A stretch of 18,186 nucleotides of DNA from Deinococcales bacterium (GTDB lineage Bacteria; Deinococcota; Deinococci; Deinococcales; JAAFIG01): assembly GCA_031414595.1 (NCBI GenBank), contig JANNVX010000066.1, positions 1 to 18,186 of the forward strand, written 5' to 3'. The notes under the pieces were generated by a model. That model saw only the letters and a program-made list of their open reading frames with translations, searched no databases and had not been told where the DNA came from. Shown in pieces: positions 141-17,969 of the stretch. Both the position numbers and the translations under genes were made by a program. The first letter of the stretch is position 1. Each line of letters begins with the position of its first letter.

Positions 141-293
141 ATGGTTTTGCGTTGGTTCTCGGACGACACCAAGCGTAAAGATTTACCAGCCACAATCAAA
201 AACGACCCCGCCCTCGAGACCGCACGTCTGAGGTTCGCAAAAAATGAAATCACTTCCGAGGAATTCGAGGTCATTAAGCGCGGTCTGGGCTAA
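141..293 (+). pseudogene. SHOCT-domain membrane protein, 3' remnant (N-terminal TM part apparently lost)
   Basis: C-terminus DPALETARLRFAKNEITSEEFEVIKRGL matches the SHOCT pattern (LxxRFAxGEIxxEEF). Only MVLRWF of a hydrophobic segment remains, and the upstream in-frame sequence runs into the REP region. Confidence 0.6.
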
Positions 294-322
294 TAACAAG
301 TACCTTCCAAGGACGTTAAATC

Positions 323-985
323 ATGCACACCCTAACTGTTGGTAAATTACGTGGCTTACAACAAATTGCCACTGACCAAGGTTTTTTTGCAATGACAGCA
401 ATGGATCACCGAGCTTCGATGCAGCGCATGATTCAGCCAAGCACACCCAATCTGGTCAGCGCCCAAATGCTGACGGCGTATAAGCGCGATTTAACCGTAG
501 CACTTGCTCCAGTCTCGAGTGCTGTACTGCTTGACCCCATTTACGGAGCAGCCCAAGTCATTGCCAGCACCGATTTACCGCGCAGTACAGGTTTACTGGT
601 CGGTATTGAAGCCAGTGGCTACACCACTGAGGGTGGCACTCGGATAACCGAATTTTTAGAAGATTGGAGTCTCGAGAACGCTGCCTCGAGCGCCCCTTGG
701 ATTTTGCTTTCGGCTGGGGTTGATTTTGACGAATTTGCAATTCAAGTACGAATTGCCTGTACTGCGGGGGCATCAGGTTTTTTAGCAGGTCGCGCTGTTT
801 GGCAAGAAGCCATGCAAATTGAATCTGCCTTGGAGCGGCGGCATTGGCTCGAGTCTGTGGCTCGAGAACGGGTACAGCGTCTTGCCGAAATTGTCGGTGA
901 GTTTGGGCAGCCATGGTGGAAAAAATGGGCAGCCACCCCCCAAGAACTGACCACAACCTCAGAAACTTGGTATGCCACCTATTAA
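323..985 (+). pseudogene. lacD: Tagatose-1,6-bisphosphate aldolase (LacD/YihT class I aldolase family) with a large in-frame internal deletion
   Basis: N-terminal AMDHR, SAVLLDPIYG and GLLVGIEASGY and C-terminal PWILLSAGV and GASGFLAGRAVW are typical of LacD. It is only 220 aa (family usually about 300-340), and the central AVKxLxYY and DVLKxE (Schiff-base Lys) segments are missing. Confidence 0.8.
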
Positions 986-1011
986 CATCTCAAAAAACCC
1001 AAAAGGAGTTT

Positions 1012-3090
1012 ATGCAGCATAACCACGCCCCAGAAAGTCCAGCCAAAGTAACTACCAATCACTCGAGTCACGCTGCGATGCCACCAAAAGCCAACCACAA
1101 CGAACACGCTGGTCATGATAAAAGTATGGTTAGCGATATGCTGCGGCGCTTCTGGGTTTGTTTAGTGCTGACCATTCCAGTGGTGCTGTTCTCGCCTATC
1201 GGAATGGGCATTGGTTTTACGTTCGATCCACCGTTTGGTTTAAGCATGGAATGGTTTGGGCTGATTTTGACCACACCAATTGTCTTCTGGGGGGCATATC
1301 CGTTTACCTCGAGTGCTTGGAATTCGCTCAAAAAAGCTGATGTAACGATGATGACCCTGATTGCCGTGGGCATTCTGGTTTCTTATTTGTATTCTGTGGC
1401 TGCCACGGTGTTTTTGGGTGGCGATGTCTTTTTTGAAGCCGCCGCGATGCTGACCACTTTTTCTTTGGCTGGTCATTGGCTCGAGATGCGCTCGAGGTTT
1501 GCCACAGGGCGAGCCGTCGAAGCCCTGCTCAAACTTACCCCAGCCACGGCTCGAGTGCTGCGAAATGGGCAAGAACAACAAGTACCGCTCGAACAAGTGG
1601 TGGTCGGTGATGAACTTATCGTTAAGCCCGGAGACCGTGTGGCGGTCGATGGTACAGTCACGTCTGGCTCGAGTTATGTGGATGAAAGCATGATTTCAGG
1701 CGAATCAATCCCTGTACAAAAAGAATCAGGTGCAAAAGTGACAGGCGGAACGGTCAATCAATCGGGTGCATTTCAATTTAAGGCAACGGCGGTCGGTGCA
1801 GATACAGCTTTGGCAAAAATTGTCCAGATGGTTCAGGATGCCCAAGCCAGCAAAGCTCCAGCCCAACAATTGGCAGACACGGCGGGTAAGTACCTTGTTT
1901 TTGTGGCGCTAGGTGCTGGAATTCTGACTTTTACTGCTTGGATGCTGTTTAGCACTCAAGGCGTTGTTTTTGCGCTGGCAGCGGCGGTCAGTGCAATTGT
2001 GATTGCTTGCCCAGACGCACTGGCATTGGCAACCCCAACCGCCATTACCGTTGGGGTTGGAAGAGCCGCCAAAGAAGGGGTGCTGTTCAAGAATGCCACA
2101 GCACTCGAGGCAACCGCCAGCATCAATACAGTTATTTTTGATAAGACTGGCACTTTAACCCAAGGGAAACCCGCCGTAACCGACCTCGAGCCAAGCCAAG
2201 GAACTGACCCACTCGAGTTATTGCGGGTGGCTGCCAGTGCCGACCAGTCTTCGCAACATCCGCTTGCCGAAGCGATTGTGCGTGAAGCCAAAAAGCGCAA
2301 GCTCGAGTTGGTCGCCCCAGAAAAATTTAATTCGATTGCTGGACTGGGGATTAGCGCAAGTCTGGAAGGAAAAACAGTTTTTATTGGCAATCTGCGCTTG
2401 ATGCAAGAAAAAAAGATTGCTACCCAAGCGCTCGAGGCAAGCAGCCAACGCCTCTCGAGTGAAGGCAAAACCGCGATGTATGTGGCTCGAGACGGGATTC
2501 TACTGGGGCTGATTGCCGTAGCCGATGTGATTCGTCCGACTGCCAAAAATGCAGTGGCTGCTTTACACGCCCTGAGCATTCAAACCGTGATGCTGACTGG
2601 CGATAACACCCGCACCGCCGAAGCTGTCGCCAAACAACTTGGCATAGATACCGTCATTGCCGAGGTTTTACCGCAAGACAAAGCCGATAAAGTCAAAGCC
2701 TTACAACTCGAGGGACGCAAAGTGGCGATGATTGGTGATGGAGTCAACGATGCTCCTGCGCTGGCAATGGCAGAAGTTGGTATTGCGATTGGGGCGGGTA
2801 CGGATGTGGCTGTGGAAACGGCTGATGTGGTGTTGGTTAAAAGCGATCCCTCGAGTGTCGCCAGTGGGATTCAGATTGCTCGAGTGGTACGGCAAAAAAT
2901 TGTGCAGAATTTATTTTGGGCAGCCATTTACAATGTTTTAGCCATTCCAATTGCGGCTGGGGTGTTGTACCCATCTTTGGGGATTTTGTTGCGTCCAGAA
3001 TGGGCTGCTCTTTTGATGAGTGCCTCCACGGTGATTGTGACTGTCAATGCTTTATCAATCAATGGGGTTCGGCTAAATAAAACTATTTGA
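1012..3090 (+). CDS. copA: Heavy-metal (copper-type) translocating P1B ATPase with a His-rich N-terminus
   Basis: RBS AAGGAG before ATG 1012. Motifs DKTGTLT, SGES (TGE variant), HP, TGDN, GDGVNDAPAL, TM6 CPDALALATP, TM7 YN and TM8 MSAST. Confidence 0.92.
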   Translation: MQHNHAPESPAKVTTNHSSHAAMPPKANHNEHAGHDKSMVSDMLRRFWVCLVLTIPVVLFSPIGMGIGFTFDPPFGLSMEWFGLILTTPIVFWGAYPFTSSAWNSLKKADVTMMTLIAVGILVSYLYSVAATVFLGGDVFFEAAAMLTTFSLAGHWLEMRSRFATGRAVEALLKLTPATARVLRNGQEQQVPLEQVVVGDELIVKPGDRVAVDGTVTSGSSYVDESMISGESIPVQKESGAKVTGGTVNQSGAFQFKATAVGADTALAKIVQMVQDAQASKAPAQQLADTAGKYLVFVALGAGILTFTAWMLFSTQGVVFALAAAVSAIVIACPDALALATPTAITVGVGRAAKEGVLFKNATALEATASINTVIFDKTGTLTQGKPAVTDLEPSQGTDPLELLRVAASADQSSQHPLAEAIVREAKKRKLELVAPEKFNSIAGLGISASLEGKTVFIGNLRLMQEKKIATQALEASSQRLSSEGKTAMYVARDGILLGLIAVADVIRPTAKNAVAALHALSIQTVMLTGDNTRTAEAVAKQLGIDTVIAEVLPQDKADKVKALQLEGRKVAMIGDGVNDAPALAMAEVGIAIGAGTDVAVETADVVLVKSDPSSVASGIQIARVVRQKIVQNLFWAAIYNVLAIPIAAGVLYPSLGILLRPEWAALLMSASTVIVTVNALSINGVRLNKTI

Positions 3091-17393: not shown

Positions 17394-17414
17394 ATCCCCT
17401 CGGTATTAAGTTTT

Positions 17415-17600
17415 GTGCAAATATCAAGTACTTCCTCGAAGCAAAATGTACAAAACCTATTGCTGTTGCGTATAGCTGGAGCTTTGAATATCACACTTTC
17501 GGAACTGACTGTGCCCCCAAACCTTGAGGGAATTGAACAGACAATAAAGCAGTCTGGTACAAAACAAAAGCGCGTTCGGACATCAAAGCGGCGTATTTAA
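17415..17600 (+). pseudogene. Probable C-terminal fragment of an XRE-family HTH regulator
   Basis: LLRIAGALNITLSEL matches the final helices of XRE domains. No N-terminal HTH helices are seen. Confidence 0.45.
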
Positions 17601-17705
17601 GAGTTCTCTCCTCGAGCATCGAAAAAGCACGTTGGCTTGTGCCTATGCCACGCTAAAAAATTGTGCTTTGAATCCCATCTCGAGTTGGTGAGGTTTTCTC
17701 AAGTT

Positions 17706-17969
17706 TTACCGACGTTTAATCAAGCGTTCGTACTCGTTGTGTAACCCAATCCAAAACCATAAGTAACCCGTGGGTACTTTAATTGCTAATGCTCAGTATG
17801 AATCGTTGATTCTCGCCGACCAGAGGTCTTTTCCGACTTCCTTAAAATGCAGTGATGGATGCCTTAGATTCTCCTCGAGCAGCGTGTATTGCTTATCAGC
17901 TAAACGCTGAATCTCGAGCGGTAATGCGTAATAAAACGCCCAGAATCTCGGTGTAGTTTGGTGATTCAC
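17706..17969 (-). pseudogene. RelE/ParE-like toxin with an in-frame nonsense codon (absent from the ORF track)
   Basis: Manual translation MNHQTTPRFWAFYYALPLEIQRLADKQYTLLEENLRHPSLHFKEVGKDLWSARINDSY*ALAIKVPTGYLWFWIGLHNEYERLIKRR. HPSLHFK, WSAR and WFWIGxHxEY motifs present; TGA at 17795-17793 where YRAL is expected. Confidence 0.85.

Follow-up and report, generated by a model that had tools for sequence, protein, structure and literature searches.

Recognition sites of restriction enzymes are normally avoided by genomes, not multiplied, and the highly iterated palindrome HIP1 has been a puzzle for some 30 years. In E. coli, the bias of very-short-patch repair (Vsr, acting with Dcm) raises the frequency of the methylase recognition word CCWGG. 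Neisseriaceae (DUS) and Pasteurellaceae (USS) have uptake sequences, non-palindromic words of 9–12 bases present about once per kb, for which biased uptake or recombination and a conversion-like drive are known. HIP1 (GCGATCGC) and the alternate cyanobacterial HIPs are many-fold over-represented palindromes (Elhai 2015, PMC4390886; PMC5861425); for HIP1, Xu, Lawrence and Durand (2018, PMC5861425) give an over-representation of 15–300-fold and a periodic distribution at 10–90 kb. Only recently has HIP1 been linked to natural transformation, which it raises and for which it is proposed as an uptake mark (Kamoku and Nielsen, bioRxiv 10.1101/2024.09.10.611283; Rodriguez-Cruz et al. 2026, PMC13756078); in the preprint this effect is methylation-dependent.

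The window, i.e. the whole stretch of 18,186 nucleotides analysed here, lies in a genome of uncultured Deinococcales (G000), which was compared with related genomes (G001, G003, G005 and others). Its features are as follows.

213..17918, no strand: 105 copies of the palindrome CTCGAG (direct count, shuffles).
5138..6351, plus strand: CTCGAG-free insertion of 1.2 kb, GC content 39.2%, with a DUF3800 gene at 5165–6295 (count, Pfam, alignment).
7552..15839, plus strand: V-type ATPase operon (subunits I, K/c, E, C, F, A, B, D; Pfam) with 39 CTCGAG sites.
16305..17610, plus strand: CTCGAG-free stretch, GC content 41.4%, with a 330-aa ORF at 16401–17393 (count, Pfam, comparison).

An earlier note on this DNA had counted about 105 CTCGAG sites and claimed a strong excess. 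The number is exactly 105, with the first site at 213 and the last at 17913–17918, whereas dinucleotide-preserving shuffles of the window (n = 200) contain 2.93 on average and 8 at most, none of the 200 reaching 105. As the note had also stated, the sites occupy all three codon phases and the spaces between genes: according to the ORF list, 44 are in phase 0 (Leu-Glu), 20 in phase 1 and 28 in phase 2, and 13 lie between genes or at gene edges. Dicodon-preserving shuffles keep phase-0 CTC-GAG by construction, and synonymous codons were therefore shuffled instead; for the 17 ORFs of the window this gave a mean of 9.75 and a maximum of 19 sites (n = 200) against 94 observed, overlapping ORFs being counted twice. 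The V-type ATPase operon, whose A subunit is 68–70% identical to those of Thermus and Thermaceae, in line with the earlier note's mention of Deinococcota, served as the orthologous stretch for a site-by-site comparison in 7 genomes of the genus. Among the assembled contigs of public runs, those from other studies include relatives of the window; a comparison of four runs gave 1,636 differing places.

The whole G000 assembly (4,488,778 bases in 120 contigs, GC content 47.2%, 94% complete) contains 23,235 copies of CTCGAG, that is 5.2/kb or about one per 190 bases, compared with about 971 expected from base composition (24-fold). CTCGAG is the top hexamer of this genome, threefold ahead of any other. 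Its density is 5.18/kb in genes and 5.33/kb in spacers, with a metagene profile that stays level, at about 5/kb, from the starts of genes to their ends. Even the poorest contig has 2.3/kb, and site-poor regions of at least 5 kb number only 4. Spacing is near random (CV 0.99) with only mild evenness: pairs less than 20 bp apart are mildly depleted and gaps of 400–1000 bp are rarer than expected at random. The only short-range period is the coding period of 3, with no helical period (10–11 bp). From –10 to +10 around the sites no base reaches a frequency above 0.30; CTCGAG is thus a bare hexamer whose flanks are not conserved, and it does not belong to a repeat element such as REP or MITE. Other palindromes are avoided in G000 (observed/expected, O/E, 0.011 for GGCC and 0.14 for GATC; CGATCG is almost absent).

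Might the excess follow from the usage of codons, amino acids or dinucleotides, or stem from a dispersed repeat or from an artefact of assembly or library? In G000, 60% of the coding sites are in phase 0, and GC-rich relatives that favour CTC and GAG codons reach 2–3.4/kb. However, those relatives exceed the synonymous-shuffle expectation only about 2–4-fold. In the called genes of G000 (crude calls, from ORF plus codon score) there are 20,411 sites where synonymous shuffling gives 1,993, a tenfold excess; codon-order shuffles of the coding sequence are exceeded 22-fold, and spacers carry 2,858 sites against 99 expected, a 29-fold excess. Of the Leu codons only 15.6% are CTC, and of the Glu codons only 32.7% are GAG, but 59.8% of all Leu-Glu pairs are written CTCGAG. 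The flanks are random, and the reversed word GAGCTC, of identical composition, has only 6 copies. The excess recurs in each of the 18 other family genomes, hence in 19 of 19 independent assemblies, and the sites lie at orthologous positions, which excludes an artefact of assembly or library. Explanations of this kind are refuted and retain almost no probability, and the earlier view that codon and amino-acid preference are inadequate holds for the genome as it does for the window.

CTCGAG is a highly iterated palindrome shared by an entire family of uncultured Deinococcales. In the 5 genera of this family, 19 of 19 genomes carry 4.3–6.8 sites per kb, the single-contig assembly G013 among them, while each of the 132 genomes in the rest of the order has 3.4/kb or less. 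One CTCGAG-rich member has 60.6% GC in a sampled 40 kb, compared with 47% for G000. The sister family f3 avoids the word (37–1,193 copies per genome in 36 genomes), and some low-GC genomes of family f2 show an intermediate enrichment. The excess is not limited to one contig, and the description of CTCGAG as HIP1-like outside cyanobacteria is apt in the operational sense of a hyper-abundant palindrome in all frames and spacers. No report of CTCGAG hyper-abundance in a Deinococcales lineage was found in literature searches.

The pressure for CTCGAG is strong enough to put Leu-Glu at the top of the over-used dipeptides of the G000 proteome. There are 20,418 Leu-Glu pairs where 9,183 are expected (2.22-fold), whereas the ratio for Glu-Leu is 0.98 and the baseline for Leu-Glu in 55 unrelated loci is 0.92. 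Site density correlates only weakly with protein conservation (rho –0.21, 178 genes); thus, it is not just tolerant proteins that carry the sites.

Recently imported DNA, such as the DUF3800 insertion and other low-GC gaps, lacks the word. The insertion is present in G000 and in its closest relative G005, where contig G005:C520 aligns straight through, and is missing from the corresponding position in G001 and G003, where its flanks lie 23 (G001:C439) and 26 (G003:C98) bases apart. It is therefore a recent acquisition in which the word has yet to appear. The stretch at 16305..17610 is probably foreign as well; its 330-aa ORF has no Pfam match and no match among the genomes of the genus. When viral contigs were searched for three CTCGAG in about 80 bases, at least 126 stretches, mostly GC-rich, came up. 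The best candidate among the matches listed, G031 (46,320 bases, 78 CTCGAG, 0 GAGCTC), was rejected as a phage of the family: neither blastn nor tblastx matches it to G000, its palindrome profile is uncorrelated with that of G000 (r = 0.14), and it contains 75 CGATCG.

The ortholog alignments proposed in the earlier note were run, and show that individual sites are retained. The conservation tests of Xu et al. (PMC5861425) were reproduced on CTCGAG with 261 kb aligned between G000 and G003, at 21% divergence. Of 1,408 sites, 1,049 (74.5%) are conserved, compared with 29.9% for all hexamers and 23.7% for control palindromes (n = 23, four G/C), which places CTCGAG first of 735. At positions with an unchanged amino acid, the codon too is more often unchanged within sites than elsewhere (inside/outside: CTC 0.871/0.414, GAG 0.894/0.489, CGA 0.864/0.399, TCG 0.852/0.649). 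In spacers, divergence is 0.103 within sites and 0.244 elsewhere, and 64 of 82 sites are kept. Each of the six letters is protected, with rate ratios from 0.18 to 0.42, and at synonymous positions the letters evolve 3–6 times more slowly, T and A being as protected as C and G. Between the closer pair G000 and G005 (130 kb compared, 93.2% identity), 42 synonymous changes fall inside sites where 242.5 are expected (ratio 0.17); in the window itself, 92 of 96 aligned sites are kept in G005 at an overall identity of 93.8%. Gains and losses between these close relatives are about equal, with 643 sites in common, 64 only in G005 and 55 only in G000.

One-letter variants of CTCGAG behave in the opposite way and are short-lived. 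Only 127 of 719 (17.7%) are kept between G000 and G003, below the average for all hexamers, and 149 of the 719 in G000 stand opposite a perfect CTCGAG in G003. The copies are at a mutation-selection (or mutation-drive) balance, and site conservation reads alike under functional selection and under a conversion-like drive. One weak force per site, with a scaled coefficient S of about 3 (a hand calculation from a single rate ratio), would fit both the 10–29-fold excess and a decay about 6 times slower. That a 6-bp palindrome is recognised all or none suggests a dimeric reader that discriminates like a restriction or modification enzyme.

The earlier note had proposed a genome-wide process, possibly a CTCGAG methyltransferase with biased repair or a binding protein. 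The process is indeed genome- and lineage-wide and sites are retained, but the methylase idea is not supported: no CTCGAG methylase, XhoI-type nuclease or Vsr was found. The XhoI-family endonuclease (PF04555) was found in none of the 19 family genomes, while the same search is positive in 6 of the 151 genomes of the order, among them 5 of family f4 in which the gene is convergent with a 340-aa N4/N6 methylase. No orthologue of this XhoI-linked methylase was found in the family; its best match there is 33% identical over 238 residues, and G002, G013 and G014 have none. Methylase loci were gathered with PF00145, PF01555, PF02384, PF07669/PF12950 and PF02086, and no orthogroup is common to the six representatives of the five genera (family genomes are 57–94% complete). 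A C5 methylase was not found in G010, nor an N4/N6 beta-class methylase in G013, nor Vsr (PF03852) in the 94% complete G000. From gene content, no recognisable CTCGAG restriction-modification gene appears to be present.

Several individual candidates were rejected. The TaqI-like methylase P0001 (G000:C4, 663 aa, HTH + N6_Mtase + TaqI_C) was set aside as a family-wide driver, having orthologues only in G000, G001 and G003. Its relatives at 50–55% identity come from Betaproteobacteria and other MAGs and bear no specificity names, and its PDB matches are generic gamma-class methylases. Methylases with a TaqI_C domain occur in only 5 of the 18 other family genomes and are lacking in the single-contig G013. 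Dam-type methylases are found in 17 of these 18, those of G006, G010 and G012 being no more than weak matches; they form two groups about 26% alike, of which G000 has only the one shared with G005 and G003, and they probably relate to GATC. GATC is frequent in a G013 locus but avoided in G000. The largest methylase cluster, a 500-aa HsdM-like (type I) protein, is also present in f3 genomes with few CTCGAG. A SacI-family nuclease is encoded by 6 of the 18 other family genomes (5 of 6 in genus g5, 1 of 2 in g2) and by none in genus g1; it does not apply to the near-absence of GAGCTC in G000, and may explain part of the avoidance of that word elsewhere.

Methylation-directed biased repair, as in Elhai's model of HIP1, would require a CTCGAG methylase of an unrecognised family that marks sites, and repair that converts near-sites to the full word. 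Each cyanobacterial HIP is accompanied by a cognate methylase according to Elhai (PMC4390886), many methylases are encoded in G000, a genome in which a number of other palindromes are avoided, the accessory P0001 carries a TaqI-like specificity domain, and all-or-none specificity is typical of modification enzymes. Against this stand the patchy methylases described above, the failure to find Vsr in G000 or an XhoI-family nuclease in the family, and the pattern of substitution itself: the transition neighbours are not depleted (O/E 1.23 for TTCGAG and 1.07 for CTTGAG), and protection at T and A equals that at C and G. We regard this mechanism as improbable.

Alternatively, CTCGAG might be the binding site of an abundant chromosomal protein involved in nucleoid organisation, a dimer that reads the word while selection keeps many spread sites. 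A chromosomal protein was proposed for HIP1 by Xu, Lawrence and Durand (PMC5861425). The palindrome would suit a homodimer, and positions are conserved in genes and spacers alike. The uniform density, which hardly varies with GC content, gene position or protein conservation, fits such a role, as do the depletion of close pairs and the rarity of long gaps. However, architectural proteins usually tolerate degenerate sites, whereas here the one-letter variants are conserved less than average hexamers, no helical or other short period is seen, and no candidate protein was found. HIP1 variants with one letter off are conserved (PMC5861425), unlike those of CTCGAG. This explanation is somewhat unlikely, if better placed than biased repair.

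The reading we tentatively favour, by analogy with HIP1 and with known uptake systems, is that CTCGAG may be a mark of self-DNA in natural transformation or in the recombination that follows it. The word would label DNA as 'self', DNA bearing it would be preferred in uptake or recombination, and alleles with CTCGAG would displace alleles without it, which amounts to a conversion-like drive. Genes for ComEC, DprA and secretins are present in the family, but so they are across the whole order, families lacking the excess among them, and they are therefore only compatible with an uptake role; no candidate receptor was found. Against it, the HIP1 effect needs methylation, yet no candidate methylase shared by the family was found; known uptake sequences are longer, non-palindromic and sparser; and the spacing of CTCGAG is close to random. 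A more specific proposal, which we consider unlikely as it stands, is that CTCGAG would be a second, independent watermark of HIP type without a cognate methyltransferase, in which a protein as specific as a restriction enzyme would read the unmodified word in uptake or recombination and push it to one copy per 190 bases throughout the family. Within the order CTCGAG is treated in opposite ways, being avoided in f3, a target of XhoI-type restriction in f4 and intermediate in some low-GC f2. Given this opposite treatment in sister lineages, such a watermark may have arisen out of a CTCGAG restriction system or in conflict with one.

That an unrelated second lineage has a palindrome even denser than HIP1 turns the HIP question into a comparative one: candidate readers are genes common to both systems, or gained at the base of the CTCGAG-rich family. 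The contrasts with HIP1 (a hexamer and not an octamer, no cognate methylase found, unstable one-off variants) constrain the models. The force is measurable, a single coefficient fitting excess and decay, and reshapes the proteome. New elements are the positional conservation, the slow evolution of all six letters, the instability of variants and the balance of gain and loss. In practice, absence of CTCGAG flags imported DNA in genomes of this family, and its density is a sharp signature for metagenome binning and host assignment.

Among systems with the same recognition word, XhoI/PaeR7I-type genes were not found in the 19 family genomes. The Dcm/Vsr case differs in that G000 has no Vsr and the family no conserved C5 methylase, and in that T-containing neighbours of CTCGAG are not depleted, all six positions are protected and the excess is far larger. 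DUS and USS resemble CTCGAG in being family-wide short words in genes and spacers, in both orientations, that are scarce in recent imports and accumulate even against protein sequence; molecular drive by biased uptake and recombination would give the same equal balance of gains and losses. They are longer, non-palindromic and about five times sparser than CTCGAG, which has 6 bases, is palindromic and occurs at 5/kb.

HIP1 belongs to another phylum and is an octamer, whereas CTCGAG is a hexamer without a GATC or CGATCG core. Cyanobacterial HIPs occur at about 1/kb, each with a cognate methylase (Elhai, PMC4390886), compared with about 5/kb and no such enzyme found in the family for CTCGAG. One-letter variants are conserved for HIP1 (HIP1*; PMC5861425) and unstable here. 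The over-representation of CTCGAG, at 24-fold, may be set beside the range given for HIP1, and both words are found in every reading frame as well as in spacers, are lineage-wide and are scarce in imported DNA. In both, as Xu et al. (PMC5861425) describe for HIP1, conservation between genomes is above that of control palindromes, and codons within the motif are more conserved.

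The window contains 105 exact copies of CTCGAG, spanning positions 213 to 17918, against a mean of 2.93 and a maximum of 8 in 200 dinucleotide-preserving shuffles. Placed on our ORF list, 13 copies lie outside genes or at their edges; of the others, 44 read as Leu-Glu (CTC-GAG, codon phase 0), and phases 1 and 2 hold 20 and 28. The earlier note, which had described a large excess in all three phases, was right in its site count, its phases and its order of magnitude. Synonymous-codon shuffling of the 17 window ORFs (n = 200) gives a mean of 9.75 copies and a maximum of 19, compared with 94 observed (sites in overlapping ORFs enter twice). 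The assembly of the source genome, G000 (4,488,778 bases in 120 contigs, 47.2% GC; the window is contig C66), contains 23,235 copies, or one per 193 bases, versus approximately 971 predicted by base composition. CTCGAG is its top hexamer, threefold ahead, and ranks 2 to 7 are taken by six hexamers that overlap it.

Codon or amino acid usage, a dispersed repeat and an assembly artefact would be trivial causes of such an excess; they rank last and are extremely improbable. A dispersed repeat element was rejected, as base frequency is at most 0.30 at every flank position from -10 to +10. By crude gene calls (3,952 genes, 88% coding), density in G000 is 5.18/kb in genes (12,216, 3,960 and 4,235 sites in phases 0, 1 and 2, respectively) and 5.33/kb in spacers, where 2,858 sites compare with 99 predicted by composition. 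Within-gene synonymous shuffling yields 1,993 copies and codon-order shuffling 907, compared with 20,411 observed; since a tenfold excess remains after synonymous shuffling, usage is also rejected as the cause. Synonymous shuffling is the fair test here, because dicodon-preserving shuffling, the test named in the earlier note, keeps phase-0 sites by construction. The earlier note had allowed that the excess might be confined to this contig or be an artefact. Even the poorest contig of G000 has 2.3/kb, and all 18 other genomes of the family (5 genera, one genome in a single contig) carry 4.3–6.8/kb, with sites at orthologous positions; an artefact is thereby rejected as well.

Leu-Glu is the most over-used dipeptide of G000 (20,418 pairs versus 9,183 expected, 2.22-fold; Glu-Leu 0.98, Ser-Ser 1.50); its ratio is 0.92 across 55 unrelated loci with comparable GC and 2.2–2.4 in other family genomes. 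CTC accounts for 15.6% of Leu codons and GAG for 32.7% of Glu codons, and CTCGAG spells 59.8% of the Leu-Glu pairs. Density is flat at about 5/kb over gene starts, bodies, ends and spacers, apart from a drop to 3.9 over the opening 30 bases of genes and a climb to 6.4–7.0 near stop codons, and depends weakly on protein conservation (rho -0.21, 178 genes). Spacing is near random (CV 0.99): gaps below 20 bp occur at 0.28–0.63 of expectation, there is a slight surplus at 60–200 bp and a deficit at 400–1000 bp, and the long-gap tail sits in low-GC DNA. The sole period in a short-range test is 3, and G000 has four CTCGAG-poor regions of at least 5 kb. The reversed word of the same composition, GAGCTC, has 6 copies in G000 and 0–568 across the family, and accordingly there are 0 CTCGAG pairs exactly 6 bases apart. 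Pairs at distance 7, with one base between (CTCGAGNCTCGAG), number 101 in G000, of which 81 lie within genes; their flanks are unique throughout and the middle base is variable. Distances 8–14 have 17–54 cases each.

Both CTCGAG-free stretches of the window are low in GC. Features of the window that bear on imported or duplicated DNA are:
5138-6351: DUF3800-gene insertion, GC 39.2%, CTCGAG-free, common to G000 and its closest relative, G005
1-141 and 18046-18186: window ends, about 140 bases each, CTCGAG-free
676-3090: P-type ATPase gene, with a second copy, 89% identical, at G000:C107:1908-4305

Two genomes of the same genus, G001 and G003, lack the insertion at 5138-6351: at the corresponding locus its flanks are separated by 23 and 26 bases, respectively. 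The insertion has no CTCGAG; thus, imported DNA comes in without the word. The window-end stretches recur at 98–100% identity, both at many G000 contig ends and in four other genomes (G001, G003, G005 and G007). The two are not mutual reverse complements (30 of 141 positions identical) and are probably pieces of a multi-copy mobile element that interrupts the assembly. The region upstream of the ATPase gene (141-678) also matches contig C107, at 84%.

Across the order (151 genomes, five families, 37 genera), CTCGAG ranges through avoidance, restriction and intermediate density to hyper-abundance. The 19 family genomes contain 12,028–35,442 copies and the remaining 132 genomes 37–12,522, with a maximum of 3.4/kb. 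Within the family, GC differs widely at similar CTCGAG density (47% in G000 versus 60.6% in 40 kb of the single-contig genome, G013). In sampled stretches, family f2 includes low-GC genomes of intermediate density; one of them, G130 (GC 0.46), has 2.4/kb, and its long ORFs hold 57 copies versus 8.1 after synonymous shuffling. G151 and G063 are further f2 intermediates. The sister family f3 avoids the word, with 37–1,193 copies in 36 genomes of 1.9–4.8 Mb (e.g., G020, G088, G096, G128) and zero in a sampled 20-kb stretch of one genome; GAGCTC is likewise scarce there. No XhoI-family nuclease was found in any of the 36 f3 genomes, and the breadth of avoidance is unusual, exceeding the norm for a strain-variable restriction system.

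Palindrome avoidance in G000 is extreme. GGCC has 152 copies (O/E 0.011), GATC an O/E of 0.14, and some twenty palindromic hexamers, GAGCTC among them, have fewer than 30 copies each (TGCGCA 2, GGCGCC, CGATCG and GACGTC 3 each), which fits the many methylase genes of this genome. A viral record with no relation to G000, G031 (46,320 bases, terminal repeats, complete-looking), is enriched in TCGA-containing palindromes (CTCGAG 78, CGATCG 75, TCGA 521 versus 176 expected) and lacks any copy of 18 palindromic hexamers. Five loci of genus g5 show a weak match (22–33 bits) to the SacI nuclease family beside a Dam-type methylase frame of 280–294 aa:
G011:C63:75478-77147
G016:C573
G015:C320
G017:C356
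G014:C699
These neighbours are a possible GAGCTC restriction-modification pair, which may lie behind the near-absence of GAGCTC in that genus.

Alignment with G003 (261 kb, 21% divergence) indicates that CTCGAG sites are actively maintained. Of 1,408 sites in G000, 1,049 (74.5%) are retained in place; hexamers as a whole reach 29.9%, and 23 control palindromes containing four G/C reach 23.7%. Among the 735 hexamers that occur 100 times or more, CTCGAG has the highest retention, followed by words overlapping it. Where the amino acid is unchanged, codon identity inside versus outside sites is 0.871 versus 0.414 for CTC, 0.894 versus 0.489 for GAG, 0.864 versus 0.399 for CGA and 0.852 versus 0.649 for TCG, and at each of the six letters the synonymous third-position rate is 0.18–0.42 of that in the same codons outside sites. 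In aligned spacers, 64 of 82 sites are retained, and divergence is 0.103 within CTCGAG versus 0.244 elsewhere. Variants one letter from CTCGAG are conserved in 127 of 719 cases (17.7%), below the average hexamer, and 149 of the 719 stand opposite a perfect CTCGAG in G003. In the closer comparison with G005 (130 kb, 93.2% identity), where there is little saturation, 42 synonymous changes fall inside sites versus 242.5 expected (ratio 0.17). Turnover there is balanced, with 643 sites in common, 64 in G005 only and 55 in G000 only; it is less so against G003 (352 sites in G000 only versus 629 in G003 only), which has the higher overall density.

If loss of a site carries a scaled coefficient of -S, its relative fixation rate is S/(e^S - 1), and the ratio of 0.17 from the G005 comparison corresponds to S ≈ 2.9 and e^S ≈ 18. 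As this value falls inside the measured range of excess (10-fold over synonymous shuffles, 24-fold over composition, 29-fold in spacers), a single weak force per site, specific to the exact word, would explain both abundance and persistence. Selection and a conversion-like drive could each supply this force, and sequence comparison cannot tell between them. Whatever the mechanism, the all-or-none specificity favours a reader whose discrimination matches that of restriction or modification enzymes.

The earlier note had suggested a CTCGAG methylase with biased repair as the driver. This proposal found no support: the candidate is patchy in the family, no XhoI-type nuclease or Vsr was found, and all letters of the word are protected. 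Searches covered known protein families in genomes that are 57–94% complete. Two methylases of G000 carry a TaqI-like specificity domain; such methylases occur in 5 of the 18 other family genomes, and none in G013. The better candidate, P0001, was set aside, as its orthologues are confined to G001 and G003, and it looks horizontally acquired. In a set of six representatives covering all five genera, G010 yielded no C5 methylase and G013 no beta-class N4/N6 methylase, and gamma-class genes vary. Clustering of all ORFs at these methylase loci gave zero orthogroups spanning the whole set; its biggest cluster, an HsdM-like protein of type I, was rejected, being present too in CTCGAG-poor f3 genomes. 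Dam-type genes, found in 17 of the 18 other family genomes, form two groups about 26% alike, with weak matches in three genomes (G006, G010 and G012).

XhoI-family endonucleases occur in 6 of the 151 genomes of the order (five of family f4 and one broken f2 copy), and none was found in the 19 family genomes. Two loci were inspected, in the Thermus-like f4 genomes G021 and G109:
G021:C1:73699-77256 (L415): XhoI-family endonuclease and 340-aa N4/N6 (PF01555) methylase, convergent, adjoining a DeoR regulator gene
G109:C8 (L416): XhoI-family endonuclease and 340-aa N4/N6 (PF01555) methylase, convergent
The linked methylase has relatives at 63% identity in two other families. Within the family its best distant match is 33% over 238 residues, with none found in G002, G013 or G014. 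Vsr was not found in G000, where the deamination neighbours TTCGAG and CTTGAG are undepleted (O/E 1.23 and 1.07) and transversion neighbours have an O/E of 0.17–0.70; the T and A positions are protected alongside C and G. The not-found results lower the likelihood of methylation-directed repair, which we rank third and consider improbable.

Uptake sequences of the Neisseriaceae and Pasteurellaceae show the same pattern as CTCGAG. Biased uptake or recombination, acting as a drive, predicts what is seen: sites family-wide, evenly scattered, indifferent to coding, lacking in imports, balanced in turnover and weakly favoured one by one. G000 encodes ComEC, DprA and secretins, and secretins occur in 17 of the 19 family genomes; these signify compatibility rather than proof, because competence genes are equally present in families without CTCGAG excess. 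Our first-ranked reading, tentative and at somewhat less than even chances with the observed part included, is that CTCGAG may serve as a self-mark in uptake or recombination. A chromosomal binding protein that reads CTCGAG comes second and is rather unlikely. The remaining probability goes to mechanisms other than the four ranked here.

Recent work on HIP1, the cyanobacterial octamer, has turned to transformation (bioRxiv 10.1101/2024.09.10.611283; PMC13756078). In Synechococcus PCC 7002, the preprint reports, HIP1 sites boost natural transformation by as much as >100-fold in a methylation-dependent manner (bioRxiv 10.1101/2024.09.10.611283). In the 2026 study, HIP1 abundance tracks pilus and competence genes, methylases fall short of significance among the correlates reported, and HIP1 is proposed as a DNA-uptake watermark (PMC13756078).

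A full-text literature search, partial in coverage, found no description of a comparable word for Deinococcota. Operationally, CTCGAG is a highly iterated palindrome. The same conservation tests underlay the inference of selection on HIP1 (Xu, Lawrence and Durand, PMC5861425), and on the alignments used here CTCGAG passes them, save that one-off variants are conserved for HIP1 and not for CTCGAG. Unlike HIP1, CTCGAG has no detectable cognate methylase, and the two differ in length, density, phylum and the behaviour of one-off variants.
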